A program made the position numbers and the translations under genes. Below, piece after piece: positions 3,087-52,008 of a DNA stretch of 64,000 nucleotides; the first letter of the stretch is position 1; each line of letters begins with the position of its first letter. The stretch is taken from contig CAVPHD010000005.1 in the NCBI GenBank assembly GCA_963704165.1, forward strand, positions 96,001-160,000, in the 5' to 3' direction. The DNA comes from an uncultured delta proteobacterium. Its GTDB lineage: Bacteria; Myxococcota_A; UBA9160; SZUA-336. The notes below the pieces were generated by a model. That model ran no database searches. It was not told where the DNA came from and saw only the letters and a program-made list of their open reading frames with translations.

Positions 3087-5375
3087 TTGGGTAGAGGCGT
3101 GAAGCGATCCGCGGCCAAACGCTCGACCAAGGCTGAACCTCGGCTGCCCGGGCGACTCGAGGCCGAGGCGGTGGCCGTGACGCTAGCTGTCCTCGCGCTG
3201 TTCACCGAGGCTGCGCTCCTCTCGTACGATCCGTCCGACCCACTGATTGCGAGCGGAGCGAGGGTCGAAAATTGGTGCGGTCCCGTCGGGGCGCTCGTGG
3301 CAGGCGGGCTGGCGGGCAGCCTGGGATTCGCCGCCCACGTACTTCCGCTCGCCGCGGGCGTCGTTGCGCTGCGCTATCTGCGCGGGCTGCCGTTGCGACC
3401 GCGCTGGATTCCCCTGGCGGGCTGGTCGCTCTGCCTGCTCAGTCTGGCGGCGGGCTTCGAAGTCCTTCACCGTGCGATCCCCGACTCGATCCCGGCGGGC
3501 GCGGGCGGGTTCCTTGGGATTGGAATCGTCGGCCCCTTGTCGCGAGCGTTCTACCTCGCGGGCTCGTCTCTCATTCTTTGGATCGCCGCGGCGCTCGGTC
3601 TACTGGCCGCGACGGGCGTATCGCTTCGAGATGCGACCCAGGGGGCGCGCCAACTCGTACGCCGAGCGGCGCGCGAATTCGGGCAGCTGGCGCGCGTGAG
3701 CGGAGTCCGCCTTCGCAGGCGCCTCGCGGCGCGTGCAGAGGCGCGAGGCGCAGAGCGCGAGGAGGCCGATCCCCCGACGCCTGGAACGCGCCAGAGCCAG
3801 AGAGCCGCGCCCCGTCTCACGCCGTCCCGAAGGGTCAAAGCGGGTGAGCCCGAGGTCGTCGAGTACCGCGTGGCCGCGCCCGCGCCGCTGCGTCAGGAGC
3901 CGTTGCCATTCGCGGACGGTCGAGCCGAGGGGCCGTACAAGCTGCCCGATCTCGATCTGCTCGCCCGCGGACCTGATTCGAGCCCGAACCTCGATCGCGA
4001 CGCGCTGATTCGCAACTCGCAGATCCTCGAGAAGAAGCTCGCCGACTTCGCCGTGCTCGGGCGCGTCGTGAAGGTGCATCCCGGTCCGGTGATCACGATG
4101 TACGAATTCGAGCCCGCGCCCGGTGTGAAGGTATCGCGCATCGTGAATCTGTCCGACGATCTCGCGCTCGCGCTGCGCGCGACCTCCGTCCGGATCGTCG
4201 CGCCGATCCCGGGGAAGAACGTCGTCGGGATCGAAGTGCCCAACGTCGAGCGAGACGTGGTGGTGATTCGCGACGTGATCGCGCACTCGTGCTTCCAGGA
4301 GGCCGAGTCGCGGATTCCGATCGCACTCGGCAAGGACATCTTCGGCAACCCCGTCACGGCCGATCTCGCTTCGACGCCGCATCTGCTCGTCGCGGGGGCC
4401 ACCGGCACGGGGAAGTCGGTGTTCCTCAACGCGCTGCTCTGCAGCATCCTCATGCGTTCGACGCCCGACGACGTCAAGCTCCTGCTCGTCGATCCGAAGA
4501 TGCTCGAGTTCTCGCTCTACCAAGGTGTTCCGCATCTGATCGCCGACGTCGTCACGAATCCGAAGCGCGCAGCCGCCGCGCTCCTCGGCGTCGTGAACAA
4601 GATGGAAGAGCGCTACCAGCTGATGGCGAAGCGCGGCGTGCGCAACATCGAGCAGTACAACAAGGCCATCGCCAAGGATCTCGCCACCCACCGGCCGAAA
4701 GCCGACGACGAAATCGTCCCGAAGAAGCTTCCGTACATCGTCGTCGTGATCGACGAGCTCGCAGATCTGATGATCGTCGCCGCGCGCGATGTCGAGGAGT
4801 CGCTGATGCGGCTCGCGCAGATGGCACGCGCCGCCGGCATCCACCTCGTGCTCGCGACGCAGCGCCCGAGCGTGGACGTGCTCACGGGGATCATCAAGGC
4901 GAACTTCCCGTCCCGAATCTCGTTCCAGGTGAGCTCGCGCACGGACTCGCGCACGGTTCTAGACGCGAATGGAGCGGAAAGACTGCTGGGCATGGGAGAC
5001 CTCCTCTACGTTCCACCCGGCAGCTCGAAGCTCGAGCGAATCCATGGGCCGTACATCTCCGAGAAGGAGGTCGAGGCCGTCACGAAGTGGGTACGCCAAC
5101 AGGGGTCTCCAGAATTCGACCCGACGCTGATTCGTCTCAGTCAGGAAAGCGAGAAGAACGAGGAGCGGGGGGAGGACCTCGATGAGCTCTTCGATCAGGC
5201 AGTCGACGTGGTCGCGCGCAACAGAATCGCGTCGATCTCGTTCGTTCAACGCAAGCTCAAGATCGGATACAACCGGTCGGCGAGGATTCTGGAGCAGATG
5301 GAGGCCGACGGCATCGTCGGGCCTCAAGAGGGAACCAAGCCCCGTGAGATCTTCGTCCGTCCGCCCGACGAGTAG
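3087..5375 (+). CDS. ftsK: DNA translocase FtsK
   Basis: N-terminal TM segments, PHLLVAGATGTGKS Walker A, VIDELADLM, ATQRPSVD, gamma domain QRKLKIGYNRSAR; start TTG 3087 or GTG 3099. Confidence 0.97.
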   Translation: MGRGVKRSAAKRSTKAEPRLPGRLEAEAVAVTLAVLALFTEAALLSYDPSDPLIASGARVENWCGPVGALVAGGLAGSLGFAAHVLPLAAGVVALRYLRGLPLRPRWIPLAGWSLCLLSLAAGFEVLHRAIPDSIPAGAGGFLGIGIVGPLSRAFYLAGSSLILWIAAALGLLAATGVSLRDATQGARQLVRRAAREFGQLARVSGVRLRRRLAARAEARGAEREEADPPTPGTRQSQRAAPRLTPSRRVKAGEPEVVEYRVAAPAPLRQEPLPFADGRAEGPYKLPDLDLLARGPDSSPNLDRDALIRNSQILEKKLADFAVLGRVVKVHPGPVITMYEFEPAPGVKVSRIVNLSDDLALALRATSVRIVAPIPGKNVVGIEVPNVERDVVVIRDVIAHSCFQEAESRIPIALGKDIFGNPVTADLASTPHLLVAGATGTGKSVFLNALLCSILMRSTPDDVKLLLVDPKMLEFSLYQGVPHLIADVVTNPKRAAAALLGVVNKMEERYQLMAKRGVRNIEQYNKAIAKDLATHRPKADDEIVPKKLPYIVVVIDELADLMIVAARDVEESLMRLAQMARAAGIHLVLATQRPSVDVLTGIIKANFPSRISFQVSSRTDSRTVLDANGAERLLGMGDLLYVPPGSSKLERIHGPYISEKEVEAVTKWVRQQGSPEFDPTLIRLSQESEKNEERGEDLDELFDQAVDVVARNRIASISFVQRKLKIGYNRSARILEQMEADGIVGPQEGTKPREIFVRPPDE

Positions 5376-6009
5376 CGCGCGCGCCCTGCTGGCGTGCCTG
5401 GTGCTCACGCTCGTCGCCGCAGAGGCGGAGGACGAAGCGGGCCGCACTCTCGATGCGGTGCAGACGCGCTACGACGCCGTCCGCGATCTGCGCGCGAGCT
5501 TCGAGCAATCGAGCTTCAGCACGGCGCTCGGTACGGAAGTCCGCTCTGGGGGCGAAGTGACCGTCGAGAGGCCCGGAAAGATGCGCTGGGAGTACGCGTC
5601 GCCCGACGGCCGCGTGATCGTCCTCGACGCGAACTCGATCCGGATCTGGAATCCCGAGGAGAACCAGCTTCAGATCGCCGCGATCTCGGTCGGCAACGTA
5701 TCCCCCACGGCACTCGGCTTTCTGCTCGGCCAGTCGGTCCTACGCGACGTGTTCGAGGCCGAGCTGATCTCGGAGCCCGCGCGCGCCGAGCGCGGGCTCC
5801 GACTCCGACCCAAGAGCGACGGCGGTTTCGAATTGCTGGAGTTGTGGGTCGACGCGAAGACCTATCAATTGCGGGAGTCCGTGGTCGTCGATCTGTTCGG
5901 GAACCGAACTCGCCTCCGACTCGACCAGATGCGCGAGAACGAAGGCGTCGGCAGCGCAGAGTTCGAGTTCTCCGCCCCCGAGGGAGCGGAGGTCATCGAT
6001 CTGCGATGA
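5344..6009 (+). CDS. lolA: Outer-membrane lipoprotein carrier LolA
   Basis: ASFEQ, RPGKMRWEY, FEFSAPEGAEVID; follows ftsK; start uncertain (GTG 5344 chosen, signal peptide follows). Confidence 0.9.
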   Translation: MRSSSVRPTSSARALLACLVLTLVAAEAEDEAGRTLDAVQTRYDAVRDLRASFEQSSFSTALGTEVRSGGEVTVERPGKMRWEYASPDGRVIVLDANSIRIWNPEENQLQIAAISVGNVSPTALGFLLGQSVLRDVFEAELISEPARAERGLRLRPKSDGGFELLELWVDAKTYQLRESVVVDLFGNRTRLRLDQMRENEGVGSAEFEFSAPEGAEVIDLR

Positions 6010-6476
6010 AGCGCGTTGTCGGTTTTGCGAATCCGAGTCCGGTGGCGCGCCATCCAAAGAGCGGCACGCCGCGACTCAGTTTGGGTGGCGAAGTCTTGAC
6101 GCCCGGGCCGTCGGCGAACCGTCGCGCCTGCGAGGGTCCGGCAGAGGCCGCTCGCCGAGCGATAAACCGTGGAGTCTCAAGGACTTTCGCCATTGGCTGC
6201 ACGCCTGGGGCCGTTGCAATGAGAAGACGTTTTGATAGACTTTTGAAGTATCCTAACTGTTCGATATATCAGGTGATTTTGGACCGAAGTCGGGTTCAGG
6301 GGTCAGTCCTTCCCGTACCGGGGCGTGTTGCTTCACCCGAGTTCCTTCATGCGAGCTGCAACGCGTCCGTGACTCCGGCGTATAAGCGCTTGAACGCTCA
6401 GGATTTTCTGTCGACACGACGCGACCTGGTGCTTTCTTCGCGCTCGCATCGGATACGAGCTTCGGCAGACTCTGCT

Positions 6477-6492
6477 TGGTATGTCGATTGCA
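6477..6492 (+). promoter_or_regulatory. Sigma-54 (-24/-12) promoter for the Pup-proteasome operon
   Basis: TGGTATG-TCGA-TTGCA matches TGGYAYR-N4-TTGCW with exact GG-N10-GC spacing; 40 nt upstream of the arc ATG, with GAGGAG RBS in between. Confidence 0.75.
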
Positions 6493-6532
6493 TTTCTCGG
6501 AGGCGCGGATCAGCGGAAGGCGAGGAGATCCA

Positions 6533-8365
6533 ATGAGCGACACGGGTTCGGGTTCCGGGAGGAGAGGGTTCGTCCGAGACGTAATGAAGCGCATCTCCGT
6601 CTCGCGCGGAGCTGATGACGACGAACGGGAGAGCCGCTTGCCTGACGACATGGATGAGATCGAGAAGGTTCGAGACTCGCTGCGCTTTCTTGGGCCGGAG
6701 TCGGCCGATCTCGCGCGTCGCGTCGAACGCGTCCTGATGGAGTACGAGATGCTCCGCCAGCGCGTCGAGCGTCAGCGGCAGCAGGTCTTCGACTCCGAGC
6801 GCCAGAACGAGAAGCTCGTCAGCGGACTGCAGGACGCAAAGCAGCAGATCGATCTGCTCAAGCAGGAGGTAGACAAGCTCTGCTCCCCGCCGAATACGTA
6901 CGGGATCTTCGAGCGCAGCAACAAGGACGGAACCTGCGAGATCAACGTCGACGGCAAGATGATGCGGGTGAACTCGCATCCGAGCATCCGCATCGAGGAG
7001 CTGATGGAAGGTCAGCTCGTCGTGTTGAATGAGGCCTTCAACATCGTCGACGCGACGACCTTCGACCCCCGCGGCGAGGTGATGACCGTTTCCGACGTTC
7101 TGGACGATGGGCGCGTGATCGTCCTCGGTCACGCCGACGAGGAGCGCGTGGTGAGCCTCTCGCAGCCGATGCGGCGCGAGAAGCTCAAGGCCGGCGACAA
7201 CCTGCTCGTCAATCCGCGCTCCGGATTCGGCGTGGAGCGTCTGCCAAAGTCCACGGTCGATCAGGTCATGCTCGAGGAAGTTCCCGACGTCACGTACGAG
7301 GACATCGGCGGACTCGGCGATCAGATCGAAGTCCTGCGCGACGCGATCGAGCTGCCGTACCTGCATGCCGACCGCTTCAAGCGCTACAGCCTCTCGCCAC
7401 CGAAGGGCATCCTCCTCTACGGACCTCCGGGGTGCGGGAAGACCATGATTGGCAAGGCGGTGGCCAACAGCCTCGCGCTTCGCATCCAGGAGCTGCGCGG
7501 CGGCGAAGCGAAGAGCTACTTCCTCAACGTGAAGGGTCCGGAGCTCCTGAACAAGTACGTCGGTGAGACGGAGCACAAGATCCGCGAAGTGTTCAAGAAC
7601 GCGCGAGAGAAGGCGGAGGAGGACGTTCCCGTCGTCATCTTCTTCGACGAGATGGATTCACTCTTCCGCATGCGTGGATCCGGGATCTCGTCTGACATGG
7701 AAGCGACGGTCGTCGCGCAGTTCCTTTCGGAGATCGACGGAATCGAGTCTCTGCGGAACGTGATCGTGATCGGTGCGAGCAATCGCCAGGATCTGATCGA
7801 TCCGGCGGTGCTTCGACCCGGTCGCCTCGACCTGAAGGTGAAGGTGCATCGACCCGAGAAGGCCGGAGCGCTGCAGATCTTCACCAAGTACCTGACGACC
7901 GATCTGCCGTTCAGCCAGGATGCGACGAACAAGTACGGACCGGATGTGAAGGCGATCGTTCACGGCATCGTCTCGGAAACCGTCGAGTCGATGTACGCGG
8001 AGAACGAGGAGAACAAGTTCCTCGAGGTCACCTACGCGAAGGGCGAGCGCGAGATCTTCTTCTTCAAGGATTTCTCGAGCGGCGCGATGCTGAAGAACAT
8101 CGTGGACCGCGCCAAGAAGAAGGCGGTGAAGCGGGCGATCACCTCCGGTGACGACGGAGTCCGCCTCTCGGACATGCTCGAATCCGTGCGCGAGGAGTTC
8201 AAGGAGAACGAGGACCTGCCGAACACGACGAACCCCGACGACTGGGCGCGGATCTCCGGGCGAAAGGGCGAGCGCATCATCAACGTGCGCACGCTGATCA
8301 CCGGCATGAACCGCTCGGAGCACCAGATCGAGAACGTCGGCGGTGGCTCGGGGCAGTATCTCTGA
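6533..8365 (+). CDS. arc: Proteasome-associated AAA+ ATPase ARC/Mpa
   Basis: N-terminal coiled coil ending PPNTYG, OB region, GPPGCGKT Walker A, NVKGPELLNKYVGETE, FFDEMD Walker B, ENEDLPNTTNPDDWARISG, C-terminal GQYL. Confidence 0.97.
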   Translation: MSDTGSGSGRRGFVRDVMKRISVSRGADDDERESRLPDDMDEIEKVRDSLRFLGPESADLARRVERVLMEYEMLRQRVERQRQQVFDSERQNEKLVSGLQDAKQQIDLLKQEVDKLCSPPNTYGIFERSNKDGTCEINVDGKMMRVNSHPSIRIEELMEGQLVVLNEAFNIVDATTFDPRGEVMTVSDVLDDGRVIVLGHADEERVVSLSQPMRREKLKAGDNLLVNPRSGFGVERLPKSTVDQVMLEEVPDVTYEDIGGLGDQIEVLRDAIELPYLHADRFKRYSLSPPKGILLYGPPGCGKTMIGKAVANSLALRIQELRGGEAKSYFLNVKGPELLNKYVGETEHKIREVFKNAREKAEEDVPVVIFFDEMDSLFRMRGSGISSDMEATVVAQFLSEIDGIESLRNVIVIGASNRQDLIDPAVLRPGRLDLKVKVHRPEKAGALQIFTKYLTTDLPFSQDATNKYGPDVKAIVHGIVSETVESMYAENEENKFLEVTYAKGEREIFFFKDFSSGAMLKNIVDRAKKKAVKRAITSGDDGVRLSDMLESVREEFKENEDLPNTTNPDDWARISGRKGERIINVRTLITGMNRSEHQIENVGGGSGQYL

Positions 8366-8366
8366 C

Positions 8367-9854
8367 ATGCCACTACCGAGCGTATTGGGCAGCGAGATCG
8401 AGTACGGGATCACCGTCCAGGGCGACCCGGACTTCGACCCGATCTCGAGCTGCGTTCTTCTGGTCAACGCGTATCAGGACAACGAGGAAGCCCGAATTCT
8501 CTGGGACTACGAGCAAGAGAACCCGCTGGCCGATGCGCGCGGCTTCCACGTCGAGGGCGAGAAGTACACGCCCAATCAGCAGGAGAACATCGCGCGCAAC
8601 AAGACGCTCCGGAACGGCGCGCGTTTCTACGTGGACCATGCGCACCCGGAGTACTCGACGCCCGAGGTCACGAACGTCCGCGACCTGATCGCGTTCGAAC
8701 GCGCCGGCGAACGTACGATGGAGGCAGCGCGGCGGGCGGCGACGGCACTGCTGCCGAGCGGCCAGACGGTGTTGATCCACAAGAACAACAGCGACCGCAA
8801 GGGAAACTCCTACGGCAATCACGAGAACTATCTGATCGAGCGCCGGACGCCGTTCCGCGAGATCGTCGAGCACATGACGCCGTTCCTGATCACGCGGAAC
8901 ATCTTCTGTGGCGCGGGCAAGGCCGGCAGCGAGAACCGCGCGCACCCGTGCGAGTATCAGATCAGCCAGCGCGCCGATTTCTTCGAGACCGAGGTCGCGC
9001 TCGACACGATGGTGAAGCGGCCGATCATCAACACGCGGGACGAACCTCACGCAGATCGCGAGAAGTACAGGCGCTTCCACGTGATCATCGGTGACTCGAA
9101 CTTGTGCGAGGTCTCGACCTATCTACGAATCGGGGTGACTGCGATCGTGCTCGGTCTCGTCGAGGACGGCGCGATTCCCAAGAGCCTCGCCGTGAACGAC
9201 CCCGTCAAGGTCGTCAAGGAAATCTCACACGACCTGGCGTGCAAGCGCGCGTACCCGATGGAGCGGGGTGGGCGCATGACCGCCGTCGAGGTTCAGAAGG
9301 AATACCTCGAGAACGCGTTGCGCTACTTCTCGTCGCGTGCGCTCGATCCGATCACGAAGGACGTCCTCGTCCGCTGGGAGCGAGTGCTGTCGCAGATCGC
9401 CGAAGACCCGTTCCAACTCGATCGCGAGGTCGATTGGGTGATCAAGCACAAGCTGATCAAGACCTACATGGGACGCCACGGCGTGGATTGGCACCATCCG
9501 CAGGTACACATGCTCGACCTGCAGTACCACGACGTGCGACCGGACAAGGGCCTCTACCACGTGCTCGAGCGACGCGGAGAAGTCGATCGCATCGTCGAGC
9601 CCGAGGCGATCGAGCGCGCTGTTCGAACGCCGCCGAGCGACACTCGCGCCTACTTCCGCGGCGAGTGCATCCGGCGCTACCCTGAACAGGTGTTCGGCGT
9701 GAACTGGGATTCGATATCGTTCAACGTGGGTGATGAGCCGATCAAGCGAATCCTCATGAACGAACCGCTCAAAGGCACGCGAGCGCACGTGGAAGAGCTG
9801 TTCGAGTCCAGTCCCACGGCCCAGGATCTTGTTCGCAATCTCACGGCGTCGTGA
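8367..9854 (+). CDS. dop: Depupylase/deamidase Dop
   Basis: GSEIEYGI, Dop-loop WDYEQENPLADARGF, RFYVDHAHPEYSTPE, SYGNHENY, NTRDEPHAD, Dop-type C-terminus EPLKGTRAHV. Confidence 0.93.
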   Translation: MPLPSVLGSEIEYGITVQGDPDFDPISSCVLLVNAYQDNEEARILWDYEQENPLADARGFHVEGEKYTPNQQENIARNKTLRNGARFYVDHAHPEYSTPEVTNVRDLIAFERAGERTMEAARRAATALLPSGQTVLIHKNNSDRKGNSYGNHENYLIERRTPFREIVEHMTPFLITRNIFCGAGKAGSENRAHPCEYQISQRADFFETEVALDTMVKRPIINTRDEPHADREKYRRFHVIIGDSNLCEVSTYLRIGVTAIVLGLVEDGAIPKSLAVNDPVKVVKEISHDLACKRAYPMERGGRMTAVEVQKEYLENALRYFSSRALDPITKDVLVRWERVLSQIAEDPFQLDREVDWVIKHKLIKTYMGRHGVDWHHPQVHMLDLQYHDVRPDKGLYHVLERRGEVDRIVEPEAIERAVRTPPSDTRAYFRGECIRRYPEQVFGVNWDSISFNVGDEPIKRILMNEPLKGTRAHVEELFESSPTAQDLVRNLTAS

Positions 9855-9869: not shown

Positions 9870-10127
9870 ATGAAGATCTTCAGACACGAAACGCGGCCGG
9901 CCGTCGGCATCTGGGGCGCGGCTGGCGACCAGACGCAGAAGCAGAAGCCGGGCTCCGGCGATTCGGGCAGCACTCCTTCCTCGGACGCAGGCGGGCAGAA
10001 GAAGCTCGCGAAGAAGGGCGAGGAGCTCAAAGAGGAGATGGACAATCTGATCGACGAGATCGACGAGGTCCTCGAGGCGAATGCCGAGGAGTTCGTGAAG
10101 AACTACGTTCAGCGCGGCGGCGAGTAG
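9870..10127 (+). CDS. pup: Prokaryotic ubiquitin-like protein Pup
   Basis: Disordered N-half, then DNLIDEIDEVLEANAEEFVKNYVQRGGE; RBS upstream; lies between dop and prcB. Confidence 0.96.
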   Translation: MKIFRHETRPAVGIWGAAGDQTQKQKPGSGDSGSTPSSDAGGQKKLAKKGEELKEEMDNLIDEIDEVLEANAEEFVKNYVQRGGE

Positions 10128-10131
10128 CCCG

Positions 10132-10914
10132 GTGTTCAAAGGTCAGACCTACGCCGGCGACAGCTTCTTCGAGTTCCTGCGCGTCGATCATCCCGGACTC
10201 CTGCCGGACTGGACGCACATGGATTGGACCCACGTCTCCTTGCTTCACGGCACGACGGTGCTCGCGATCGTGTGCAAGGAAGGCGCGCTCATGGCAGGTG
10301 ACAGGCTGGCGACCGAGGGACACCAGGTCGGGACGCGAGATCTCGAGAAGGTCTTCCGAATCGACGACTCGAGCCTGATGGCAATCGCCGGAGCCGCGGG
10401 CCCCGCGATCGAGATGGTCCGCATGTTCCAGCTCGAACTCGAGCACTTCGAGAAGCTGGATGGACAGCCGCTGAGCTTCGAAGGCAAGGCGAATCGGCTC
10501 TCGTTCCTGCTCCGTCAGAACCTGCCGGCCGCGATGCAGGGACTGGTGGTGATGCCGATCTTCGCCGGCTTCGACCACGACAAGGGACGCGGCCGAATCT
10601 ACAAGTTCGACATCACGGGCGGACGCTTCCGCGAGGCCGACTATTACTCGACGGGCTCCGGCGGAAAGGATGCGCGGAGTTCGCTCAAGCGGATCGTGCG
10701 CCACGAAGATCTCTCGCGTGAAGAGGCGATCCGCGCCGCCATCGAGGCTCTGGTCGACGCCGCCGACGAGGATCGCGCCACGGGTGGTATCGACGTCGTG
10801 CGCGGCATCTTCCCGACCGTGAAGCTGGCCACGCGATCTGGCGTCGAGGACGTACAGGACGACGAGTTGCGTCGGATCTACGAGGCGATCGCAGCCGAGA
10901 GACGAGCGGCCTGA
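10132..10914 (+). CDS. prcB: 20S proteasome beta subunit
   Basis: 40-aa propeptide ending HG|TT; Thr1, Asp17, Lys33 in register; TGSGG motif; LSFEGKANRL. Confidence 0.96.
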   Translation: MFKGQTYAGDSFFEFLRVDHPGLLPDWTHMDWTHVSLLHGTTVLAIVCKEGALMAGDRLATEGHQVGTRDLEKVFRIDDSSLMAIAGAAGPAIEMVRMFQLELEHFEKLDGQPLSFEGKANRLSFLLRQNLPAAMQGLVVMPIFAGFDHDKGRGRIYKFDITGGRFREADYYSTGSGGKDARSSLKRIVRHEDLSREEAIRAAIEALVDAADEDRATGGIDVVRGIFPTVKLATRSGVEDVQDDELRRIYEAIAAERRAA

Positions 10915-11603
10915 TGAGCACGCCCTTCTACGTTTCGCCGGAGCAGTGGTACCAGGACAAGGCCGAGTACGCGCGCAAGGGAATCGCGCGTGGCCGGCCG
11001 ATCGTCGCGCTCGAGTACGAGTCGGGCATCGTCATGATGGCCGAGAATCGCAGTGCGACGCTGCGCAAGATCTCCGAGATCTACGATCGCATCGCGTTCG
11101 GCGGGGTCGGAAAGCTCGACGAGTACGAGACCCTGAGGAAGTCGGGTGTGCGCTACGCCGACATGCGCGGTTACTCGTTCTCGCGCGAGGACGTCGCGGG
11201 GAAGAGCCTGGCGAACGAATACTCCAATGTCCTCGGCTCGGTCTTCACGCGCGAGATGAAGCCGCTCGAGGTCGAGATCCTCGTCGTCGAGATCAAGGAA
11301 CCCGGAAGCGCCCTCTATCAGATCCGCTACGACGGCAGCATGTCCGACATGACGCACTTCGCGACGATCGGAGGCGACGGCGACAAGCTCGGCGACGTGA
11401 TCCGGGCCGGCTGGAAGCCCGGATTGCCGCTCACCGACGCGGCGAAGCTCGCTCGGCGTGCGCTCGCTGGTTCGGGGAACTCGGGATCCATCGATGACCT
11501 CGACGAGAAGAGCCTCGAGATCGCGATCCTCGACCGCGCGCGCACAGGACGTACCTTCAGGCGGATCGTGGGCGAGGAGGCCAAGGCTCTCCTCCGAGAA
11601 TGA
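10914..11603 (+). CDS. prcA: 20S proteasome alpha subunit
   Basis: PFYVSPEQ..DKAEYARKGIARGR, KISEIYDRI, KPLEVE, LEIAILDR; TGATG overlap with prcB. Confidence 0.96.
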   Translation: MSTPFYVSPEQWYQDKAEYARKGIARGRPIVALEYESGIVMMAENRSATLRKISEIYDRIAFGGVGKLDEYETLRKSGVRYADMRGYSFSREDVAGKSLANEYSNVLGSVFTREMKPLEVEILVVEIKEPGSALYQIRYDGSMSDMTHFATIGGDGDKLGDVIRAGWKPGLPLTDAAKLARRALAGSGNSGSIDDLDEKSLEIAILDRARTGRTFRRIVGEEAKALLRE

Positions 11604-11617
11604 TCGGCGGGAACTAA

Positions 11618-13024
11618 GTGCAGAAGCGGATCTACGGTCTCGAGACGGAGTACGGGATCATATTCACGCCGGAGGGTCGCAAGACGCTGCCGGTCGAGAA
11701 GGCGATTCGCTTTCTGTTCGAGAAGCTGATCACGACCGAGCATTTCCTGAACGTGTTCTTGGAGAACGGCGCGCGCTTCTACCAGGACACCGGTTGTCAT
11801 CCGGAGTACGCGACGCCCGAATGCGCGAGCCCGAGAGATCTCGTGATCTTCGATCGAGCCGGCGAGCGCATCCTCGAGGACCTGCAGCTATACGCGGAAG
11901 AGAAGATCCGCGAAGAGCGCGTTCCGGGCAAGCTCTCGATCTTCAAGAACAACACCGACTTCGTCGGCAACTCCTATGGTTGTCACGAGAACTACCTGGT
12001 CGACCGCGACGTCGATTTCTACTACCTGGCCGAGCAGCTGATCCCGTTCCTGGTGACGCGTCAGATCTTCAGCGGCGCGGGAAAGGTCTTCCAGACGCAG
12101 GACGGGGTGCACTACTGCATCAGTCAGCGCGCGCAGCACATCTACCAGAAGATCTCGGGCACGACGACGAACGACCGCTCGATCATCAACACACGCGACG
12201 AGCCCCACGCCGACCGGGAGAAGTACCGCCGTCTTCACGTCATCGTCGGCGACTCGAACATGAGCGAGTACACGAACTTCGTGAAGATCGCGACCGCCGC
12301 GGTCGTGCTGCAGATGATCGAGGATGGCTTCATCAACAAGGACTTCACGCTCCGACACCCCGTGAAGGCGATCAAGGACATCTCGTACGACACGACCTGC
12401 AAGCGCAAGCTCCGTCTCGAGAACGGGCGCGAGTACTCACCGATCGAGATTCAGCGCGAGTACTGCGAGATGGCGCAGCGCTACATAGAGCAGTTCCCGG
12501 TCAGCGATCAGCTTCGCGAGGGTGTTCGCGAATGGCAGTACATCCTCGACTGCCTCGACAGTGATCCCGAGAAGCTCGACCGGAAGATCGATTGGATCAT
12601 CAAGCGGAAGGTGCTTCGCGGGTACATCGAGAAGCACCAGATCTCCTGGCACGACCCGCGGGTGTTCATGATCGACCTGCAGTTCCACGACCTGCGCCGT
12701 GACCGGGGCTTCTTCTACATGCTGGAGCGCAACGATCACGTCGATCGGCTCTATACCGACTCGGAGATCGAGAAGGCCAAGACCGAGCCGCCTCAGGACA
12801 CGCGCGCGCGAATGCGCGGTGACTTCATCAAGCTGGCCCGGCAGAACAACATCCAGTACGACCTCGACTGGTCGAACATCCGGCTCGGAAACCTTCTGAA
12901 CGTTCGCGTGATCTGCAACAACCCGTTCGAGACCGACACCGAGAAAGTCACGGAGCTCGTTCGCACGATCCAGAAGACGAACCTGCGCCGCACCTCGCTT
13001 TCCAAACTCGTGATTCAGAGCTGA
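11618..13024 (+). CDS. pafA: Pup-protein ligase PafA
   Basis: RIYGLETEYG, FLENGARFYQDTGCHPEYATPEC (catalytic Asp equivalent), SYGCHENYL, RSIINTRDEPHAD, PPQDTRARMRG, PafA-type C-terminus; lacks the Dop loop. Confidence 0.94.
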   Translation: MQKRIYGLETEYGIIFTPEGRKTLPVEKAIRFLFEKLITTEHFLNVFLENGARFYQDTGCHPEYATPECASPRDLVIFDRAGERILEDLQLYAEEKIREERVPGKLSIFKNNTDFVGNSYGCHENYLVDRDVDFYYLAEQLIPFLVTRQIFSGAGKVFQTQDGVHYCISQRAQHIYQKISGTTTNDRSIINTRDEPHADREKYRRLHVIVGDSNMSEYTNFVKIATAAVVLQMIEDGFINKDFTLRHPVKAIKDISYDTTCKRKLRLENGREYSPIEIQREYCEMAQRYIEQFPVSDQLREGVREWQYILDCLDSDPEKLDRKIDWIIKRKVLRGYIEKHQISWHDPRVFMIDLQFHDLRRDRGFFYMLERNDHVDRLYTDSEIEKAKTEPPQDTRARMRGDFIKLARQNNIQYDLDWSNIRLGNLLNVRVICNNPFETDTEKVTELVRTIQKTNLRRTSLSKLVIQS

Positions 13025-13028: not shown

Positions 13029-13403
13029 ATGGACCAGGAACCCAAGCTTCGATCCGTTCCACCCGGCGCGCCCTCGGGGCCCGCGACCCGCCGCGATCCG
13101 CTCGCACGATCCGAGCCAGATCCGCCACGGAATCGCACGCAGCTCGTGCTGGCCACCGCGCTCGCGCTCGCGCTCGTCCTGTTGGTCTGGAGCTACTTCT
13201 CGCTCGGTTCGCGCATCGACTCGCTCGAAGGCGAAGCGCAGGTTCTGCGCGCGGCCGTCGCCGAACGGGATGAGCTGATCAACGCCCAGCGCAACCGTCT
13301 CGACGAGGTTCGTGGCCGCGTGAAGGAGTTGCTCCAGATCGTCGAGCAACCCGTGACCGGCGAGCCCGCGCCCGCCCCTGAAGCGACCCCCGCGAACCCG
13401 TAA
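13029..13403 (+). CDS. Single-pass membrane protein with coiled coil
   Basis: Pro-rich N-terminus, TM helix LVLATALALALVLLVWSYF, heptad region; starts 4 nt after the pafA stop. Confidence 0.75.
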   Translation: MDQEPKLRSVPPGAPSGPATRRDPLARSEPDPPRNRTQLVLATALALALVLLVWSYFSLGSRIDSLEGEAQVLRAAVAERDELINAQRNRLDEVRGRVKELLQIVEQPVTGEPAPAPEATPANP

Positions 13404-18338: not shown

Positions 18339-18803
18339 ATGAGAATATTCATTCTCGCGATCGCCACGGGGGCTGGGTCGGGGTATGCACCGATCGCTTC
18401 CGGGACGTTCGGCTCGGCCGTTGGGCTGCTGCTTTGGTGGGCGATCGCGGGATCGGGTCCGGTTCTCTACGGGGTCGCGCTCCTGATCGTGGTGCTGATC
18501 GGGATCTGGGCCGCCAACCGGGCGCAGGCGATCTTCCGGCGCCACGATGACGGCCGCATCACGATCGACGAAGTCGCTGGAATGCTGCTCTCGCTCTTCT
18601 GGCTGCCCGCACGTCCGGAGGTCGTGGCGGCCGGTTTCTTGTTGTTCCGCCTCTTCGACATCTGGAAGCCCGAGCCCGCCCGTGCCGCGGAGCGGCTTCC
18701 CGGGGGCGTCGGCGTGATGGCGGACGACCTCGTCGCCGGCCTGTACGCGAACCTCGCTGGACAGCTGCTCTGGCGCGTGATCTTCGCGGAGAGCTCCGCG
18801 TGA
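18339..18803 (+). CDS. pgpA: Phosphatidylglycerophosphatase A
   Basis: APIASGTFGS, TIDEVAG, FRLFDIWKP, GVMADDLVAG. Confidence 0.95.
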   Translation: MRIFILAIATGAGSGYAPIASGTFGSAVGLLLWWAIAGSGPVLYGVALLIVVLIGIWAANRAQAIFRRHDDGRITIDEVAGMLLSLFWLPARPEVVAAGFLLFRLFDIWKPEPARAAERLPGGVGVMADDLVAGLYANLAGQLLWRVIFAESSA

Positions 18804-20135
18804 GTACTCGGCAGGCGCGCGACGCGGTCTGGGTGCTCACGATCGGCGACGAGCTCCTGCGGGGCGAGATCGTCGACTCCAACAAGTCGCACCTCTCGGA
18901 GCGCATGCTGGCGCTCGACCTCGAGACCGCGCGCCACGTGAGCGTTCCCGACGACCCCGCGGCGATCGAAGAGGTCCTGCGCGAATCGGCGTCGCGCGCG
19001 CGCGTGGTGCTCGTCTCGGGCGGGCTCGGGCCGACGCGGGACGACATCTCCACCGAGGTCGCCGCGCGAACCTTCGGACGAAAGCTCTACCGCGACGCAA
19101 GCCGCGCTCGAGCAGATTCGCGTGTTCTTCCGGCGCTTCAATCGCGAGATGGCCGAGAACAACGCGAAGCAGGCCGACTTCCCCGAGGGCGCCGTCGTGC
19201 TCCCGAACCCGCTCGGCACCGCGCCGGGGTTCATGCTCGAAGTGCCCGATGCCGCGAGCGGCGAGCTCACGCAGCTGTTCTTCATGCCCGGTGTGCCGCG
19301 CGAGCTCTACCGAATGCTCGACGAGGAAGTCGTGCCGCGCATCGGCGCGCGACTCGGCCGGGGTCGAGTGGTCCGCGCGCGCCTTCTGCGCACGTTCGGG
19401 ATCGGTGAATCGAATCTCGACCGCATCCTTCACGATCTGGCGAGGAGCGATTCCGACGCCGTACTCGGCTTCCGCACGCAGTTCCCCGACAATCTCGTCC
19501 GCATCCTCGTGCGGGCAGGCGACGAGGCCGGCGCTCTGCGAAGACTCGACCAGATCGAGGCGGAGATCCGCGCGAGGCTCGGAGATCTCGTGCTCGGCGT
19601 CGGCGAGCGTGGGCTCGAGGCGATCGTCGCGGAGGTCCTGCTCGAGAAGAAGCTGACGATCGCCGTCGCCGAATCCCTCACGGGCGGGCTCGTGACGAGC
19701 CGGCTCACGGACGTGCCCGGGAGCTCCGCCTACCTTCTGGCGTCGTTCGTCACCTATGCCAACGATGCGAAGGTGCGCGAGCTCGGCGTGGATCCGGATG
19801 CAATCGCACAACACGGTGCAGTGTCGGAGGTCGTCGCGCGTCAGATGGCGGATGGGGCACGGCGCAGAGCCGGCGCCGATCTCGGCCTGGCCACGACCGG
19901 GGTCGCGGGTCCGGACGGTGGCTCGCCGGAGAAGCCCGTCGGAACGCTCTGGTTGGCCCTCGCCGACGCGAGCGGCACGATCGCGCAGCGCTATCAGCTG
20001 ATGACGGAGCGCCGCCACAACAAGGAGCTCGCGAGCCAGCTCGCGCTCGACTGGGTGCGCCGGCGCCTGCTCGGCCTTCCGATCACGGCGGACATGTTTC
20101 CGCGCCTTTCCGGCGCGGGGGCGAAGGGCGCGTGA
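18800..20135 (+). CDS. cinA: Competence/damage-inducible protein CinA (one frameshift near 19100)
   Basis: IGDELLRGEIVDSN and SGGLGPTRDD in frame 1; NPLGTAPG, PGVPRE, AESLTGG, GAVSE, TGVAGP in frame 2; removing one A at 19099-19100 joins them. Confidence 0.9.
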
Positions 20136-25770: not shown

Positions 25771-25876
25771 CCCCCCGCATTCGCATCGGATCTGCCCTTC
25801 GGGCCAGCGCCACGTGGGTACGGGATTCGCCACTTCCTGTAGAGTGCGGCTTCGCCGTGGCCCACAGGGAGTAGCG

Positions 25877-27781
25877 ATGAGCGTGCGCAGCAAGGCTCGG
25901 ACGCTTGCGATCCTACTCGCCGTTCTGGCGCTTCCGATGCAGGGTCGCGCCAGCTTCGACCCGACCGATCCCCCGGCGGGTGCGCACACGCAGACCGAGG
26001 GCCCGCGGTACTGGGTCGGCGAGATCGAGGTCCGCTACGCCGAAGATCACCCGCTGCATCCACCGGTCGATCTCGTCCGCTCGGGACAGTACGCGCTCGG
26101 TCAGACCTCGGACGGATTCGTCGGCGCGCGCCGGGGCGGGGACAACTACTGGTTCGTGATGAGCGATCTCGGCATCGAGGGCGCGGAGCCCGTCTACGCG
26201 ACCGGTGTGCGGGATCTCTGCGAGCAGATCGTGGGCGAACTCGGCCAACGGGGACTGATCGGCGTCTACGTCGCGCCCGACCCCGCGCAGATCGATCCCG
26301 ATACCGGTGCGGATCTGCGCGGCGACGACACCCTCCTCAGCCTCGTCATCCACACCGGGCGGGTGCGCGCCGTGCGCACGTTCACTGCGGGCCAGGCCGC
26401 CGCACCCGGCGCGGCGGCGATCGCGAGCGAGTCCCCAGGCTACGAGCAGATTGCCGAGCGCTCTCCGCTGCAGCCGGTCGGCGCGGGCGATCCGCTCGCG
26501 AAGCCGAAGCTCGATGCCTACGTCGCGACCTTGAACCGCCTGCCGGGCCGCGTCGTCGATGTGGTGATCACGCCGACGCTGACGCCGGGCGTCGTCAATC
26601 TCGACTACCTCGTCTCCGAGGACAAACCGTGGACGATCTCGAGCTCGATTTCCAACACGGGCACGCAACAGACCGGCTATTCACGTCAGCGCTTCAGCTA
26701 CGCGAACTACCAGCTCACCGGTCGCGACGACGTGCTCTTGCTCGATTACCTCACCGGGAACTTCGACGAGGTCAATGCGGTGTTGGGCTCGTACGAGACG
26801 AGCCTGCCGTTTTCGTACGACCTGCGCGCGCGCGCGACCGGGTCCTTCAGCGAGTACGCCGCCGATCAGTTCGGCCAGAACGACGCGTTCACGGGTGAGC
26901 AGTACGAGATCGGCGGCACGCTGATCGCGAGCCTGGTTCGACGGCCGGGGCTCTTCCTCGACACGAGCCTCGGCGCGCGCTGGATGCAGATCGACGTCAC
27001 GAACTTCAGCACCGACGCGAGCATGCCGTTCTTCGTGCCCGAGCTCGCCCTCGCGCTCGAGCGCGTACGCTCGACGTCGCGGGTGATCGGGCGCCTGGGC
27101 CTCGAGCAGAGCGTCCCGGCCATCGCCGGAACGAACTCGAACGACATCGACGAGTTCTCCCAAGCGGGTCGCAGCGACGTCGACGAGAGCTGGCGCCTGA
27201 TCTCGCTCGACGTGCGCGGCTCGTTCTTTCTGCGGCCGTGGCTGCGAAGCGTGCCGGTCCGCGCCGGACGCGCGCTTCGCCCGCGCGAGCTCGTGCACGA
27301 GCTCGCATGGCGGCTCGGCGGTCAGTACTCGCTCGGCACGCGTCTGATCCCACAGGTCGAAGGCGTGCTCGGTGGTCCGGGAACCGTGCGCGGCTATCCG
27401 CAGGCGATCGCTTCGGGCGACTCGCTGCTCGGCGGAAGCGTCGAGTACCGCTTCCACCTGCCCCTCGCGCTGAGCGCCGTCGTGCCCTGGGATCTGCCGC
27501 TGATCGGCGAGTTCCGTCCGGCGCCCGACTCCTTCCAGCGCCTGCCGGACTGGGACTTCGTGATCGCGACGTTCTTCGACTACGGCCGGACCTGGAACGA
27601 GAACGCGGTTCCCGGCGAGGAGGACGCGACGCTGGCCTCGCTCGGCCTGGGCCTCGAGGTGGTGGTGCGACAGAACTTCTCCGTACGTTTCGACTACGGA
27701 TTCGCACTCAGCGACGTGGATTCGGCGGACGTCGAGTCGGGCCATACCGAGGCGAACTTCGCAGCGACGGTGCGGTACTAG
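25877..27781 (+). CDS. ShlB/FhaC/HecB family two-partner secretion transporter (TpsB)
   Basis: Signal peptide, POTRA-like region (LNRLPG), NTG..TG motif, loop-6 VRGYP, FFDYG, terminal aromatic strand ATVRY; GGGAG RBS. Confidence 0.88.
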   Translation: MSVRSKARTLAILLAVLALPMQGRASFDPTDPPAGAHTQTEGPRYWVGEIEVRYAEDHPLHPPVDLVRSGQYALGQTSDGFVGARRGGDNYWFVMSDLGIEGAEPVYATGVRDLCEQIVGELGQRGLIGVYVAPDPAQIDPDTGADLRGDDTLLSLVIHTGRVRAVRTFTAGQAAAPGAAAIASESPGYEQIAERSPLQPVGAGDPLAKPKLDAYVATLNRLPGRVVDVVITPTLTPGVVNLDYLVSEDKPWTISSSISNTGTQQTGYSRQRFSYANYQLTGRDDVLLLDYLTGNFDEVNAVLGSYETSLPFSYDLRARATGSFSEYAADQFGQNDAFTGEQYEIGGTLIASLVRRPGLFLDTSLGARWMQIDVTNFSTDASMPFFVPELALALERVRSTSRVIGRLGLEQSVPAIAGTNSNDIDEFSQAGRSDVDESWRLISLDVRGSFFLRPWLRSVPVRAGRALRPRELVHELAWRLGGQYSLGTRLIPQVEGVLGGPGTVRGYPQAIASGDSLLGGSVEYRFHLPLALSAVVPWDLPLIGEFRPAPDSFQRLPDWDFVIATFFDYGRTWNENAVPGEEDATLASLGLGLEVVVRQNFSVRFDYGFALSDVDSADVESGHTEANFAATVRY

Positions 27782-27784: not shown

Positions 27785-30700
27785 ATGAAGAACTCATCGA
27801 GATTCCTCGGACTCTTCGCGCGCGACGCGCTGATCTCCACCCTGGTCGCGGCGATCGCGCTCGGACCGGCCGCGACGCCGGCTTTTGCCGGACCGCAGGG
27901 CGAGCGGGTCCGACGCGGCGACGTGAGCTTCGATCACGTCGAGGGCAGCTCGAGCTGGGTGATTCACGCATCCGACGGCAGCGTCATCGAGTACGACAGC
28001 CTCGACATCGCGATCGGCGAGGCCGTGCAGTTCATGCAGACGCGCAACGGCGAGCTCAACGCGGACGCGCGCGTGCTGAACCGGATCCTCGGCTCCGCGC
28101 CGACGCAGATCCGCGGCTCGCTCACCGGCAACGGCCACATCTACATCGTGAACCCCGCCGGCGTGTACTTCCACGACGGTGCGACGGTGAACGCGAACGC
28201 GATCCACGCCGCGGGCGGTCACTTGTCGGACACCGACTTCGAGGCCGGCGTCGATCACTACACGGGCGTGACGGGAAACATCGAGAACGCCACCGAAATC
28301 CTCGCGCGGGCCGTCAGCCTGGTCGGCGCGGAAGTCGTGAACTCCGGGAGCGTCATCGCGGAGGACGGTTGGATCGTGATCGCCGCGGGGAACGACGTGA
28401 TCATCGGCCGCGAAGACGCCGCATCGGGCGGGCGCGGCTTTCTGCTTCGGGTCGAGGGCGCGTCGGGATCCGTCTTCGACGCGGCCGCGACCGGGGTGAC
28501 GAACACCGGCACGCTCGACGCGAGCGCGGGCGCAGGCGGCACCGTGCGCATCGGCGCGGGTGATCTCTACGGCACGGCGATCTTCAGCAGCGACGCCATT
28601 CGCGCTCGCGAGATCGCGCTCGCAGCCGGGAATCGCGGCGACGTCGCCCTCGCGGGCGAGGTGAGTGCCGAGAAGCTCGACGTCTCCTTCACCGGATCCA
28701 CGGCGACGGGTGCGCTGCGGACGGCCGGAGCCGCGAACGAGACCGTGACCGTGCGCGCCGACGAGCTGAAACTCTCGGCGACCGGAAACTCGAGCGCGCA
28801 GATTCGCGTCGGCGACGAGTTCGCGTTCCGAAGCAAGGATGACGCTGCGCTGGGCCCGGACAGCGTGGCGCTCGAGCAGACCGCCACGATCGCGAGCTCC
28901 GCACTCGGCGCGCTCGACATCGGCACGGCTGCCGCGGGCACTCCGCGGAGCTTCGCGCTGCGCTCGACCGCTGGTGACGTGGTCATCGACGACAAGACCG
29001 TCGTCGCCGGCAGTCACCTCGCGCTCGCCGGTGCCCTCGCCGACATCCGCGGCACCGACGCGCTCGACGTGGCGTCGCTCGCGGTCACGGGCGCCACGCC
29101 CCTGTCCGGCGGCGATGCGACCTCGGAAGGGGATCTGGTCGCGAGCGCGGGGGGCATCTCCGTGACCGGAAACCTCCAGCTCGTCACGAAGCCGACCGCG
29201 AACAATGCACCCGCGATCGAGATGCTCGTCTCCGCGCACGACGGGACGCTCGACGTCGATGGAAACCTGAGCACCAGCGCCGGGGGTCCGCTGCGCATCG
29301 AGGCGCGCAACGTCGATGTCGGATCGACGACCGAGGTCGGTCAGGCCGTGGGCGGAGCGATCAGGACGAGCGGCGACGTGACGATCGGCTTCACGGATTC
29401 CGGCGGTGCGCAGCAGACGCAGACCGTGAAGGCGCGGACGATCGACACGCGCGGCGCGAGCGGCGTGCAGGGCGGCAATGTCGGCGTGGCCGCGATCGGC
29501 GACGTGGCGATCGGCTCGGTCGCGACCAACGGCGGCGCGGCGAGGTCGGCCTCGCAGCCGAACTTCGACGGCGGCTCGGTCAGCTTGCGAACCGACGGGA
29601 AGCTCGCGGTCGGAGCGATCACGACCGGCGGCGCGGGTACCGCGGGCCGCGCCGCGATCGACCTCGCAGGCGGCACGGTGGTGCTCACCGGTGCCCTCGA
29701 CGCGACGGGCGGCCAGGTCGGAAACGCCGACCACGCGCGCGACCGTGCGGTGAGCATCGAGGCGGACGAGATCCGACTCGGGGCGGGCGCGGTGACCGTC
29801 GCCGGCAGCGATGTCGATCTCGGTGGCGCGATTCGCGGCATCGACGTGGTTCCAGCGACGGATCCGCCGACCACGCTTCGTTCCGATCTCGCGATTCGTG
29901 CGAGCGGAGCTACGCGCCTGCACTCGACCGCAGACGTGCGTTCGCTCTCGATCGCGAGCGCGGGAACATCCGTCGTGCTCGGCGGCGACGTCACGGCCGA
30001 CACCACGGTCGCGATCGCGTTCGACACCGCCGGTCTCGGCACGATCTCGAACGCCGGAGCTCCCGTCACCGTCAGCGCGAACCGCGTCGAGCTCGCGGCA
30101 TCGAACTCGAGCGCTTCGAATGGCCGCAGCGCACAGGTCGCTCTCGGCGATGGCATCGACTTCGAGCTCGCCCCGATCGCCGCCACCGAAGACACTGCGG
30201 AGAAGGTCGCCGCTCTCGTGCTCGACCAGGACGGTGCGATCGACAGCACCACCGTATCGCGACTTGCGGACGCGGCTCGGCCCGACACGGACCCCGTCCC
30301 CGACCTCAGGCTCGAGCTCCGCTCGAACGACGCGGTCACGCTCGATGCCACCGCGCGCGCGGACGTGAGCGGCACGGACCTGCTGATCGACTCGAGGAGC
30401 TTCTCGGCGACGGGCGCGACGCAGGCGGCGAGCGACTTCGAGCTCTCCTCATTGGATCTGTCGACGCAGGACGCGCTCGACGTCGATTTCGGCGTCACCG
30501 CCGAGAGCGTGCGTCTCGCGGGCGGCAGCAGCGGAGTGGGTGATCTCACGCTCGGCTCCGAGCTTCGCGCGGACACGATCGCGCTCGTCGCCGGCGACGA
30601 CACGGGCGGCGGCGGTGACGACGCTCGAGTGGTGATCGATCCGAGCGCGAGCCTGCGCAGTCTGTCGAGCCCGAGCGCTCGCCCGACCCGCGTCGATCTG

Positions 30701-43175: not shown

Positions 43176-44113
43176 AGCGTCGCGGCGGGGCTCTTCAGCT
43201 GCTGAAACCCCGGGCGCTTCGGCCGGGCGATGCGATCGGTGTCTGCGCACCCTCCGGGCCGGTGAATCCCGAGGTCCTCGACGCGTGCCTGGCCTGGCTC
43301 GCCGCGCAGGGGCATCCGCTCGTGCTCGGGAAGCATCTGCGCGCGCGCGCCGGACATCTCGCGGGGAGCGACGCGGAGCGATTGGAGGACTTGCTGGTGC
43401 TCGTCCGGGATCCGCGCGTCGCCGTGATCCTGTGCGCGCGCGGCGGCTACGGCGTAGGGCGCATCCTGCGCGGCATCCCGGCCGCGGAGCTCCGCGCGTC
43501 CAGAAAACTCGTGGTTGGCTACAGCGACGCGACGCTCCTGCTGTCGTTCCTTCACACGTGCGCCGGGCTCACCTCGTTGCACGGCCCCATGCTCGAGCGC
43601 GAGGACGTCACGGCCGAGGCGCGCGCTCGCCAGCTCGCGCTGATGCGTGGCGAGCCCGCGGGCCTGGCAGCGCTCTTCGGCCGTGCGGTGCGTGCGGGCG
43701 TCGTCGAGGCCCCGCTCGTCGGCGGAAACCTGAAACTGCTGCAGGCGAGCATCGGCACGGAGTGGCAGGTGGATCTGCGCGGCGCCGTCGTCTTCCTCGA
43801 GGAGGTTTCCGAGGCGCCGTACGCGCTCGACCGCGCCCTCGTGCACCTGCGCGACGCGGGCGTGCTCGAGGGGGTGCGCGGTGTCGCGCTCGGTCAGCTC
43901 GTGCGTTGCGAGTCGGAGCGTTACCCTGGCTCGTCGGCGGGCGAGACCGTGCGTGAGATCCTGTCGGACTGCATCGACGGCCCCATCGTCGAGGATCTTC
44001 CATTCGGTCACGTCGCGGACAACCACGCGCTCGGTGTGGGTGTTCGATGTCGCCTGGATGGTGCGCGAGGCGAGCTCAGGCTCCTCGAACCCGTGGTGGA
44101 GGTCGATTCGTGA
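43172..44113 (+). CDS. ldcA: LD-carboxypeptidase (peptidase S66)
   Basis: KPRALRPGDAIGVCAPSG, ARGGYG, GYSD nucleophile, GGNL, FLEEV, PFGH; the conserved N-terminus lies upstream of the first canonical start (43262), so CTG 43172 is proposed. Confidence 0.9.
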   Translation: MKRRGGALQLLKPRALRPGDAIGVCAPSGPVNPEVLDACLAWLAAQGHPLVLGKHLRARAGHLAGSDAERLEDLLVLVRDPRVAVILCARGGYGVGRILRGIPAAELRASRKLVVGYSDATLLLSFLHTCAGLTSLHGPMLEREDVTAEARARQLALMRGEPAGLAALFGRAVRAGVVEAPLVGGNLKLLQASIGTEWQVDLRGAVVFLEEVSEAPYALDRALVHLRDAGVLEGVRGVALGQLVRCESERYPGSSAGETVREILSDCIDGPIVEDLPFGHVADNHALGVGVRCRLDGARGELRLLEPVVEVDS

Positions 44114-51242: not shown

Positions 51243-51581
51243 GTGAGCAAGAGCGCGTACGAGCGCATATGGTCGGTGGTGCGCCGCATTCCCCGGGGCC
51301 GCGTGGCGACCTACGGTCAGGTCGCGCGCATGGCCGGTTTGGCGCGGCATGCGCGGATGGTCGGCTACGCGCTGCACGCGTTGGCCGACGAGACTTCGCG
51401 TTCCGTGCCCTGGCAGCGCGTGGTCAACGCGCAGGGCCGGATCTCCGCGAGATCGTTCGCGGGCAGCGAGATCGACCAGCGCCGACTGCTCGAGCGCGAG
51501 GGCGTGGATTTCGATCCGCGCGACCGCGTCGATCTCGCCCGTTTCGGCTGGCGCCGGACCGCTCCGCGCGGGCGGCGCTAG
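51243..51581 (+). CDS. Alkyltransferase-like (ATL/YbaZ, MGMT family) protein
   Basis: IPRGRVATYGQVA, ARMVG, PWQRVVN (Trp replaces the acceptor Cys). Confidence 0.9.
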   Translation: MSKSAYERIWSVVRRIPRGRVATYGQVARMAGLARHARMVGYALHALADETSRSVPWQRVVNAQGRISARSFAGSEIDQRRLLEREGVDFDPRDRVDLARFGWRRTAPRGRR

Positions 51582-51583
51582 CG

Positions 51584-52006: not shown

Positions 52007-52008
52007 AC

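Follow-up and report, generated by a model that had tools for sequence, protein, structure and literature searches.

The proteasome operon and its leader

The window, by which we mean the whole 64,000-nt stretch of DNA analysed here, carries a Pup-proteasome operon in the order arc-dop-pup-prcB-prcA-pafA. All six genes are intact and form a single operon downstream of lolA.

5344..6009, + strand: lolA (start approximate; its stop is the left edge of the leader)
6010..6532, + strand: non-coding regulatory leader, 523 bp, from the lolA stop to the arc start
6533..8365, + strand: arc/mpa, proteasome ATPase (TIGR03689, 721 bits, above cut-off)
8367..9854, + strand: dop, depupylase (TIGR03688, 577 bits, above cut-off)
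9870..10127, + strand: pup, with C-terminal GGE (PF05639)
10132..10914, + strand: prcB, 20S beta subunit (TIGR03690, above cut-off)
10914..11603, + strand: prcA, 20S alpha subunit (TIGR03691, above cut-off)
11618..13024, + strand: pafA, Pup ligase (TIGR03686, 540.6 bits, slightly below the 551.3 cut-off)

With arc, dop, pup, prcB, prcA and pafA all present, and PafA marginally under its cut-off, the operon belongs to the Pup-proteasome systems. The host genome is 84% complete and comes from a class of Myxococcota, not from an actinobacterium. The window's genes include lolA, bamD, pilT and a myxobacterial PilZ gene; most of the arc loci nearest to this one are labelled Myxococcota or Deltaproteobacteria. 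The gene order ftsK-lolA-leader-arc is class-wide; arc is present in 56/61 relatives and in 37 of the 38 class genomes, and in the phylum's other classes it is absent from all 163 genomes. The literature describes the Pup-proteasome outside Actinobacteria as a sporadic presence gained by horizontal transfer (PMC2588565, PMC7947786); in our case, in contrast, it is class-wide, and the promoter of the operon points to a specific regulator. The actinobacterial system (Mpa/ARC, Dop, Pup, PrcBA, PafA) has in common with this one the six genes, their grouping in one operon and the GGE end of Pup, whereas here the host is a diderm member of the Myxococcota and the operon is fixed behind ftsK-lolA. 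In the open-access literature, we found no publication that links pupylation with Myxococcota, sigma-54 or Deltaproteobacteria.

Several other features of the window deserve a record. Directly 3' of pafA, positions 13029-13403 encode a 124-aa predicted membrane/coiled-coil protein with no Pfam or NCBIfam match. Positions 27785-34792 encode a 2335-aa filamentous-haemagglutinin-type protein 3' of an Omp85-family gene (25814-27781), likely a two-partner secretion pair. Frameshifted-looking genes at 18800-20135, 44047-46666 and 51349-52791 of the window, and at C11:84700-86100 of the host genome (G000), are probably assembly errors; cinA, a serine hydrolase, mpl, an LLM oxidoreductase and pilR appear frameshifted.

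The initial annotation described a gap of about 520 bp, AT-rich and the longest in the window, in front of arc. We find 523 bp with a GC content of 59.3%. The window as a whole has 67.2%, and slices of 523 nt fall below the leader's value in only 0.8% of cases. Composition is uneven: the AT-rich part is 6150-6420 (54% GC), and the first 140 bp have 69.5% GC. It is probably the longest real gap, because the two larger gaps left by a rough gene caller sit under ORFs with NCBIfam hits. Class-wide, the lolA-arc gap has a median of 703 bp and ranges from 174 to 1029 bp (n = 93 leaders). The leader is not a mere spacer, since it holds a second promoter (sigma-70, P1) and a pair of activator boxes besides the sigma-54 promoter (P2).

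6086..6101, no strand: FleQ/FlrA-type palindrome box 1, predicted activator site, at about -409 from the sigma-54 start
6109..6124, no strand: FleQ/FlrA-type palindrome box 2, predicted activator site, 23 bp from box 1, at about -386
6175..6187, + strand: IHF-like site 1, about 40 nt 5' of the sigma-70 -35 (same offset in 14/54 leaders)
6214..6241, + strand: predicted sigma-70 promoter P1 (-35 at 6214-6219, 16-nt spacer, extended -10 at 6236-6241, start near 6248)
6267..6279, + strand: IHF-like site 2, one mismatch, about 50 nt 3' of the -35 start (25 matches at +45 to +54 in 54 leaders)
6381..6408, + strand: weak third IHF-like region, spanning 6383-6395, loosely kept within the genus
6477..6492, + strand: sigma-54 -24/-12 promoter P2 (GG at 6478-79, 10 nt, GC at 6490-91; predicted start 6503)
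6522..6527, + strand: arc Shine-Dalgarno

A class-wide sigma-54 promoter motif downstream of a predicted sigma-70 promoter

The coordinates and exact spacing that the initial annotation gave for a sigma-54 motif at 6477-6492 are correct, and the predicted +1 at 6503 lies 30 nt 5' of the arc ATG (6533). The box departs in two positions from the consensus TGGCACG-N4-TTGC(T/A) reported in PMC9765219. Conservation before orthologous arc genes, which had been proposed as a check, is extensive. From 110 loci plus the window we removed two without a start, one too short and ten duplicates, which leaves 98 distinct leaders; 91 of them have the strict -24/-12 core at the exact spacing, and none of the 98 has it at spacers of 2, 3, 5 or 6, on the minus strand, or inside arc. 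A relaxed pattern finds the box in 94/98, at 54-161 nt 5' of the start codon. Of the 33 strict hits in the host genome, 31 are intergenic (intergenic sequence is 13% of the DNA), and wrong-spacing controls give 0/5, 3/8, 1/7 and 0/5 intergenic hits. The intergenic strict hits include pilA, amtB, glnB/K and lpxC (names read from translations). The lpxC-like gene (C10:124556-125700, L140) stands behind a strong sigma-54 box; D. vulgaris likewise has an enhancer-controlled lipid A gene (PMC4641369).

A comparison with the genome background had also been suggested. By a matrix trained on 64 arc leaders from outside the window's family, the window box ranks 72 of 7.7 million positions, a good rank but not the top one. 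The host genome has rpoN, another of the proposed checks, together with about 15 sigma-54 enhancer-binding ATPase domains, GAFTGA enhancer proteins among the encoded products, and both ihfA and ihfB above cut-off. With the class-wide box, these support the earlier proposal that the Pup-proteasome operon has been rewired into a sigma-54/enhancer regulon. We take the arc leader to be a genuine regulatory variant, found throughout the class, of a system already known.

A metagenome arc scan with 69 usable loci out of 80 gives the box in 39/39 loci of the class clade, part of which overlap the training set. In the sister arc clade, the nearest outside the class, the box is present in 0/11 loci and a sigma-70 promoter in 11/11; this clade groups with or beside a protein whose cluster includes a member named Tectomicrobia. 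Actinobacterial-type arc loci, unlike those of the window's class, have the strict box in 0/7 cases (2/7 by a looser pattern) and the palindrome pair described below in 0/6; the pair is found in 0-1/8 of the sister clade. As the box is class-wide, absent from the sister clade, and in its strict form absent from actinobacterial-type loci, P2 was most likely acquired in the class ancestor. We infer that the sigma-70 promoter arrived with the operon, and that both the sigma-54 promoter and the FleQ boxes were gained in the class ancestor. If true, this shows a transferred operon gaining a host sigma-54 promoter over an older sigma-70 promoter.

We regard the P2 box as very probably functional. 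That it is a chance or vestigial match, as a matrix score of only rank 72 of 7.7 million might by itself suggest, is extremely unlikely, being contradicted by the exact spacing kept in 91/98 leaders with diverged flanks and in 39/39 further loci. A start at 6504, suggested by the ends of two RNA-library contigs, was dropped: other RNA contigs span both promoters, so these ends are assembly branch points. The RNA contigs come from relatives only, and all runs contained just 5-6% of the words. Another arc clade (L288, L290, L292, L295, L297, L300, L304) has the two promoter types in reverse order in 7/12 loci, with a sigma-54-like box lying 5' of the sigma-70 promoter, and several of its loci have single FleQ-like palindromes still further 5'; it is possibly an independent rewiring.

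De novo motif analysis of 81 non-redundant arc leaders reveals three further conserved elements. P1 is found in 71/81 leaders, against 2.2 in shuffles. The window P1 is a weak match, under the threshold of a generic sigma-70 scanner, and a generic sigma-70 scan reports nothing in the window. One terminator-like hairpin appears, at chance level. For IHF we used the consensus in PMC7962754. The site that the initial annotation had placed at 6383-6395 does not hold up well, with two mismatches in nine informative positions and a core that is not kept in close kin; better, position-conserved sites lie at 6175-6187 and 6267-6279. Overall, the leaders have 155 IHF-like sites where 110 +/- 12 are expected, a modest enrichment despite the conserved positions.

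In the window's family, the only conserved upstream blocks are the palindrome pair, the IHF-like sites and P1; the region between P1 and P2 is not conserved. A structured RNA in the leader was considered and rejected, given a single non-significant miRNA match in Rfam and the unconserved inter-promoter region. A small protein was rejected as well, as no stop-free frame of the window's leader is common beyond its two closest kin among the 81 leaders. Outside the window's family, 47/81 leaders (L025, L068 and L093 are examples) have a GCA-repeat block just 3' of the FleQ boxes. The block is not NtrC-like, does not occur consistently at flgB, pilA or fliA leaders, and has no clear second copy in the host genome.

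Upstream palindromes and a FleQ-like candidate activator

The boxes at 6086-6124 are palindromes of the form yGTCR-N6-YGACr, which occur across leaders as two 16-bp copies 19-23 bp apart. The pair exceeds the 95th shuffle percentile in 67/81 arc leaders, which makes it a conserved, predicted upstream activator sequence. Trained with the window left out, a symmetric model gives 6086-6124 the top rank in the genome. A second matrix, trained on 51 fliA sites alone to remove circularity, places the window pair at rank 1 of 3,869,380 positions and passes 65/81 arc leaders. Of 24 unseen metagenome arc leaders, 18 pass the arc matrix and 15 the fliA matrix. When wider spacings are allowed, the top hit is at fliA, and arc follows as intergenic hit number two, at rank 7 overall. 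A direct-repeat (Nla28-like) reading of this upstream element was dropped when the site turned out to be symmetric.

The arc motif agrees with published predicted FleQ/FlrA motifs, namely the predicted DVU2894/FlrA-family motif yGTCA-N6-TGACr (PMC4641369), from which the window boxes have two and three differences, and the proposed FleQ box GTCaNTAAAtTGAC (PMC6120874); according to the latter source, genome-wide use of the FleQ consensus in P. fluorescens is unreliable.

The same boxes recur at other sigma-54 promoters. Among 49 intergenic sigma-54-like sites in the host genome, the best single palindrome precedes fliA, and the second-best pair precedes a DegT-family gene. Of 37 fliA loci, 29 have a sigma-54 box by our first pattern, and the palindromes pass in all 29; a looser box gives ten more fliA scans (seven formerly missed loci), each with a site of 14-18 bits. 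At the DegT-like gene, the pair is present in 12 of the 13 loci with a box (30 loci in all), ten of them at -86 to -88; in 11 flagellated kin, flagellin is no more than about 10 kb from this gene. For amtB leaders, the palindrome score is at most 8.6. The flgB leaders have a sigma-54 box in 24/24 cases and a palindrome in just 3/24. They are thereby lost as a positive control for the palindromes; they lie 3' of another enhancer protein with different sites, which fits a two-tier flagellar hierarchy.

The candidate activator is encoded at C11:118191-119669 of the host genome and has a receiver, an AAA+ domain with GAFTGA, and a FleQ-like helix-turn-helix. Its gene adjoins flgM, and its ortholog is directly 5' of fliA in at least 36/61 genomes (read from coordinates). 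A PDB search with the last 83 residues finds P. aeruginosa FleQ and nothing else; the two proteins have the same RTTLVEK helix, which is also kept in the orthologs. No other readable enhancer-protein tail in the host genome has a FleQ-type helix; three tails are cut by frameshifts. The N-terminus is a Pfam Response_reg domain with the canonical Asp/Thr/Lys, and there is no FleQ domain. Judged by these features, the protein is FleQ/FlrA-like in its predicted working, yet is not classed as FleQ sensu stricto. A PAS histidine kinase adjoins the ortholog in G045, the one relative examined. The host genome retains the FleQ-like protein, fliA, and flgM with a sigma-28-type promoter (C4:563855-564900, L311; C11:116771-120029, L312) in a genus with no detected flagellin or flgB; other sigma-28-like sites in the genome precede PilZ-like and LysM-like genes.

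The tail of the activator is not found in G004, G042, G044, G049, G054, G061 and G062. G004 (74% complete) is excluded; the other six, of which G061 is the same genome as G021, are 91-96% complete where stated. Of the six activator-less genomes, five are without the palindrome pair and three also without the sigma-54 box. In G049, G061 and G062, the leaders are short (201, 354 and 174 bp) and carry the sigma-70 promoter alone; rpoN is kept and fliA is absent. G042 and G044 keep the P2 box with no strong palindromes at arc or fliA and no activator found, which implies that another activator can serve P2; as G044 is fragmented and flagellated, its missing activator may be an assembly gap. G054 is a counter-example, with the activator and most of fliA deleted and the arc leader intact with its pair. 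The deletion is about 6 kb, clean and mid-contig (C13:88212-88445), and removes both enhancer proteins, the kinase and most of fliA; the fliA remnant is 91% identical, which suggests that the event is recent. Among the activator-positive genomes scored, 39/44 pass for the pair. The five failures are one truncated contig, three leaders with one strong site, and G046 (score 7.3). In this scoring, 6 of 57 loci were unparsed, of which G049 was scored separately. Kin cannot be counted as independent cases; the losses reduce to some four or five separate events.

Flagellin is found in 27/61 genomes and in 0/12 of the window's genus, where flgB is not found either. The FleQ-like circuit therefore outlives the flagellum, as it is kept in this genus without flagellin.

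A proposed FleQ-type model of arc regulation and its alternatives

We propose a two-promoter leader in which a FleQ/FlrA-type protein binds 6086-6124 and activates P2, likely through an IHF-bent loop; as a whole, this reading is moderately probable. That the arc boxes match the boxes before fliA makes a FleQ-type regulator likely, rather than a nitrogen regulator. Binding of the FleQ-like protein to the palindrome pair is the firmer part, and we hold it to be likely; activation of P2 by that protein is somewhat less secure, though still the better bet. The FleQ-like protein, phosphorylated at its receiver, would bind the palindromes, IHF would bend the DNA into a loop between the boxes and P2, and the bound protein would then activate the sigma-54 polymerase at P2. 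P1 would likely set a basal level, above which P2 would raise the Pup-proteasome operon together with fliA. As to purpose, we can only speculate that extra proteolysis serves a motile/dispersal switch and was retained after flagellar loss in the window's genus. The support is at the level of sequence, in motifs, conservation, synteny, helix identity and partial co-loss.

On a class-wide scale, it is conceivable, at a little under even confidence, that the laterally acquired proteasome is a direct target of the flagellar master regulator, in the same tier as fliA. Proteolysis would then be part of a FleQ-sigma-54-FliA/FlgM cell-state switch, helping to explain why the cascade survives flagellar loss. 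If true, the motility hierarchy would include a bacterial proteasome, and the FleQ, FliA and FlgM genes retained in non-flagellated members would have a role. A vague guess about starvation becomes a testable claim about one protein, two 16-bp boxes and one promoter.

Three known systems are close to the proposed one. E. coli glnAp1/glnAp2 are tandem sigma-70 and sigma-54 promoters with upstream enhancer sites. The arc leader is alike in having an upstream sigma-70 promoter, a downstream sigma-54 promoter and enhancer sites upstream, but here the sites are FleQ-type instead of NtrC sites, and lie about 100-260 bp 5' of P1 without overlap. The FleQ/FlrA class II regulon (P. aeruginosa FleQ, V. 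cholerae FlrA, D. vulgaris DVU2894) shares boxes of the yGTCA-N6-TGACr type 5' of sigma-54 promoters (motif from PMC4641369), an enhancer protein with the RTTLVEK helix, and the link to fliA and flgM. It differs in that the target here is a protein-degradation operon, a canonical receiver domain replaces the FleQ N-terminal domain, and the circuit persists in a genus without found flagellin or flgB (0/12). The boxes here are also 260-640 bp from the sigma-54 box, beyond the sigma-70 promoter and at more than the typical distance given in PMC4641369. Finally, the P. aeruginosa pel promoter also has two FleQ boxes near a sigma-70-type promoter (PMC3424551); pel is without a -24/-12 box, whereas the box of the arc leader is conserved class-wide.

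The pel case bears on the best of the alternatives, in which the FleQ-like protein acts on P1 from the same boxes and some other enhancer protein drives P2, for example through the GCA-repeat block outside the window's family. FleQ regulates the sigma-70-type pel promoter from two boxes (PMC3424551), and helical phasing points the same way: the pair is in phase with the sigma-70/IHF block (R 0.52 at 11 bp, n = 60) and not clearly with the sigma-54 box (weak, R 0.30, n = 66), although at fliA the phasing between pair and sigma-54 box reaches R 0.81 (n = 29). P2 is kept without boxes in G042 and G044, and a second conserved block exists in 47/81 leaders. On the other side, that second block is missing in the window's family, which leaves P2 there with no other conserved upstream site; the same boxes stand at a fixed distance from the sigma-54 boxes at fliA and the DegT-like gene; the three collapsed leaders drop boxes and P2 together and retain P1; and the activator retains GAFTGA. 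We consider action on P1 unlikely and keep P2 as the proposed target.

The palindromes could alternatively be sites of a CRP/FNR-family (MrpC-like) factor and not of an enhancer protein. GTC-N8-GAC is compatible with the MrpC motif TGTYN8RAC (PMC4320627), the host genome has four CRP-type genes, and MrpC and MrpB have overlapping sites at one sigma-54 promoter (PMC10701913). Yet the sites are at their strongest around fliA, next to the FleQ-like gene, and weaken in genomes that have lost this activator gene, and CRP-type genes persist in one collapsed-leader genome. Such a factor is a quite improbable reader of the boxes.

Nitrogen control of P2 through NtrC, for recycling in starvation, is close to the role put forward in the initial annotation. 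The mycobacterial pupylation system works under nitrogen starvation (PMC7947786), and the host genome has sigma-54 boxes at amtB and glnB/K and an NtrB/NtrC-like pair. However, an NtrC-type matrix (TGCcc-N7-ggGCA), built from the 18 amtB leaders with a box among 30 loci, passes 1/17 and 4/64 arc leaders, which is the chance level. The window scores 6.3 at best, where the amtB median is 14.3, and an NtrC-like gene is kept in a genome that lost P2. As NtrC-type sites are not enriched in arc leaders, and the enhancer is of FleQ/FlrA type, the nitrogen/starvation role is unsupported and NtrC control very improbable; starvation may reach P2 indirectly.

PilR, the type IV pilin activator, was considered as the reader of the arc boxes because its half-site is similar (CGTCA is shared with the pilA enhancer) and G049 lacks both pilA and the arc box, but the geometry differs, with inner halves inverted and a fixed N5, and the arc matrix passes 1/29 pilA leaders (tested in that direction only), so PilR binding has hardly any likelihood. 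The pilA leaders themselves (L143-L172) show a class-wide PilR-type enhancer, GTGACG-N5-CGTCAC, and a CTGC...GCAG dyad immediately 5' of the sigma-54 box.
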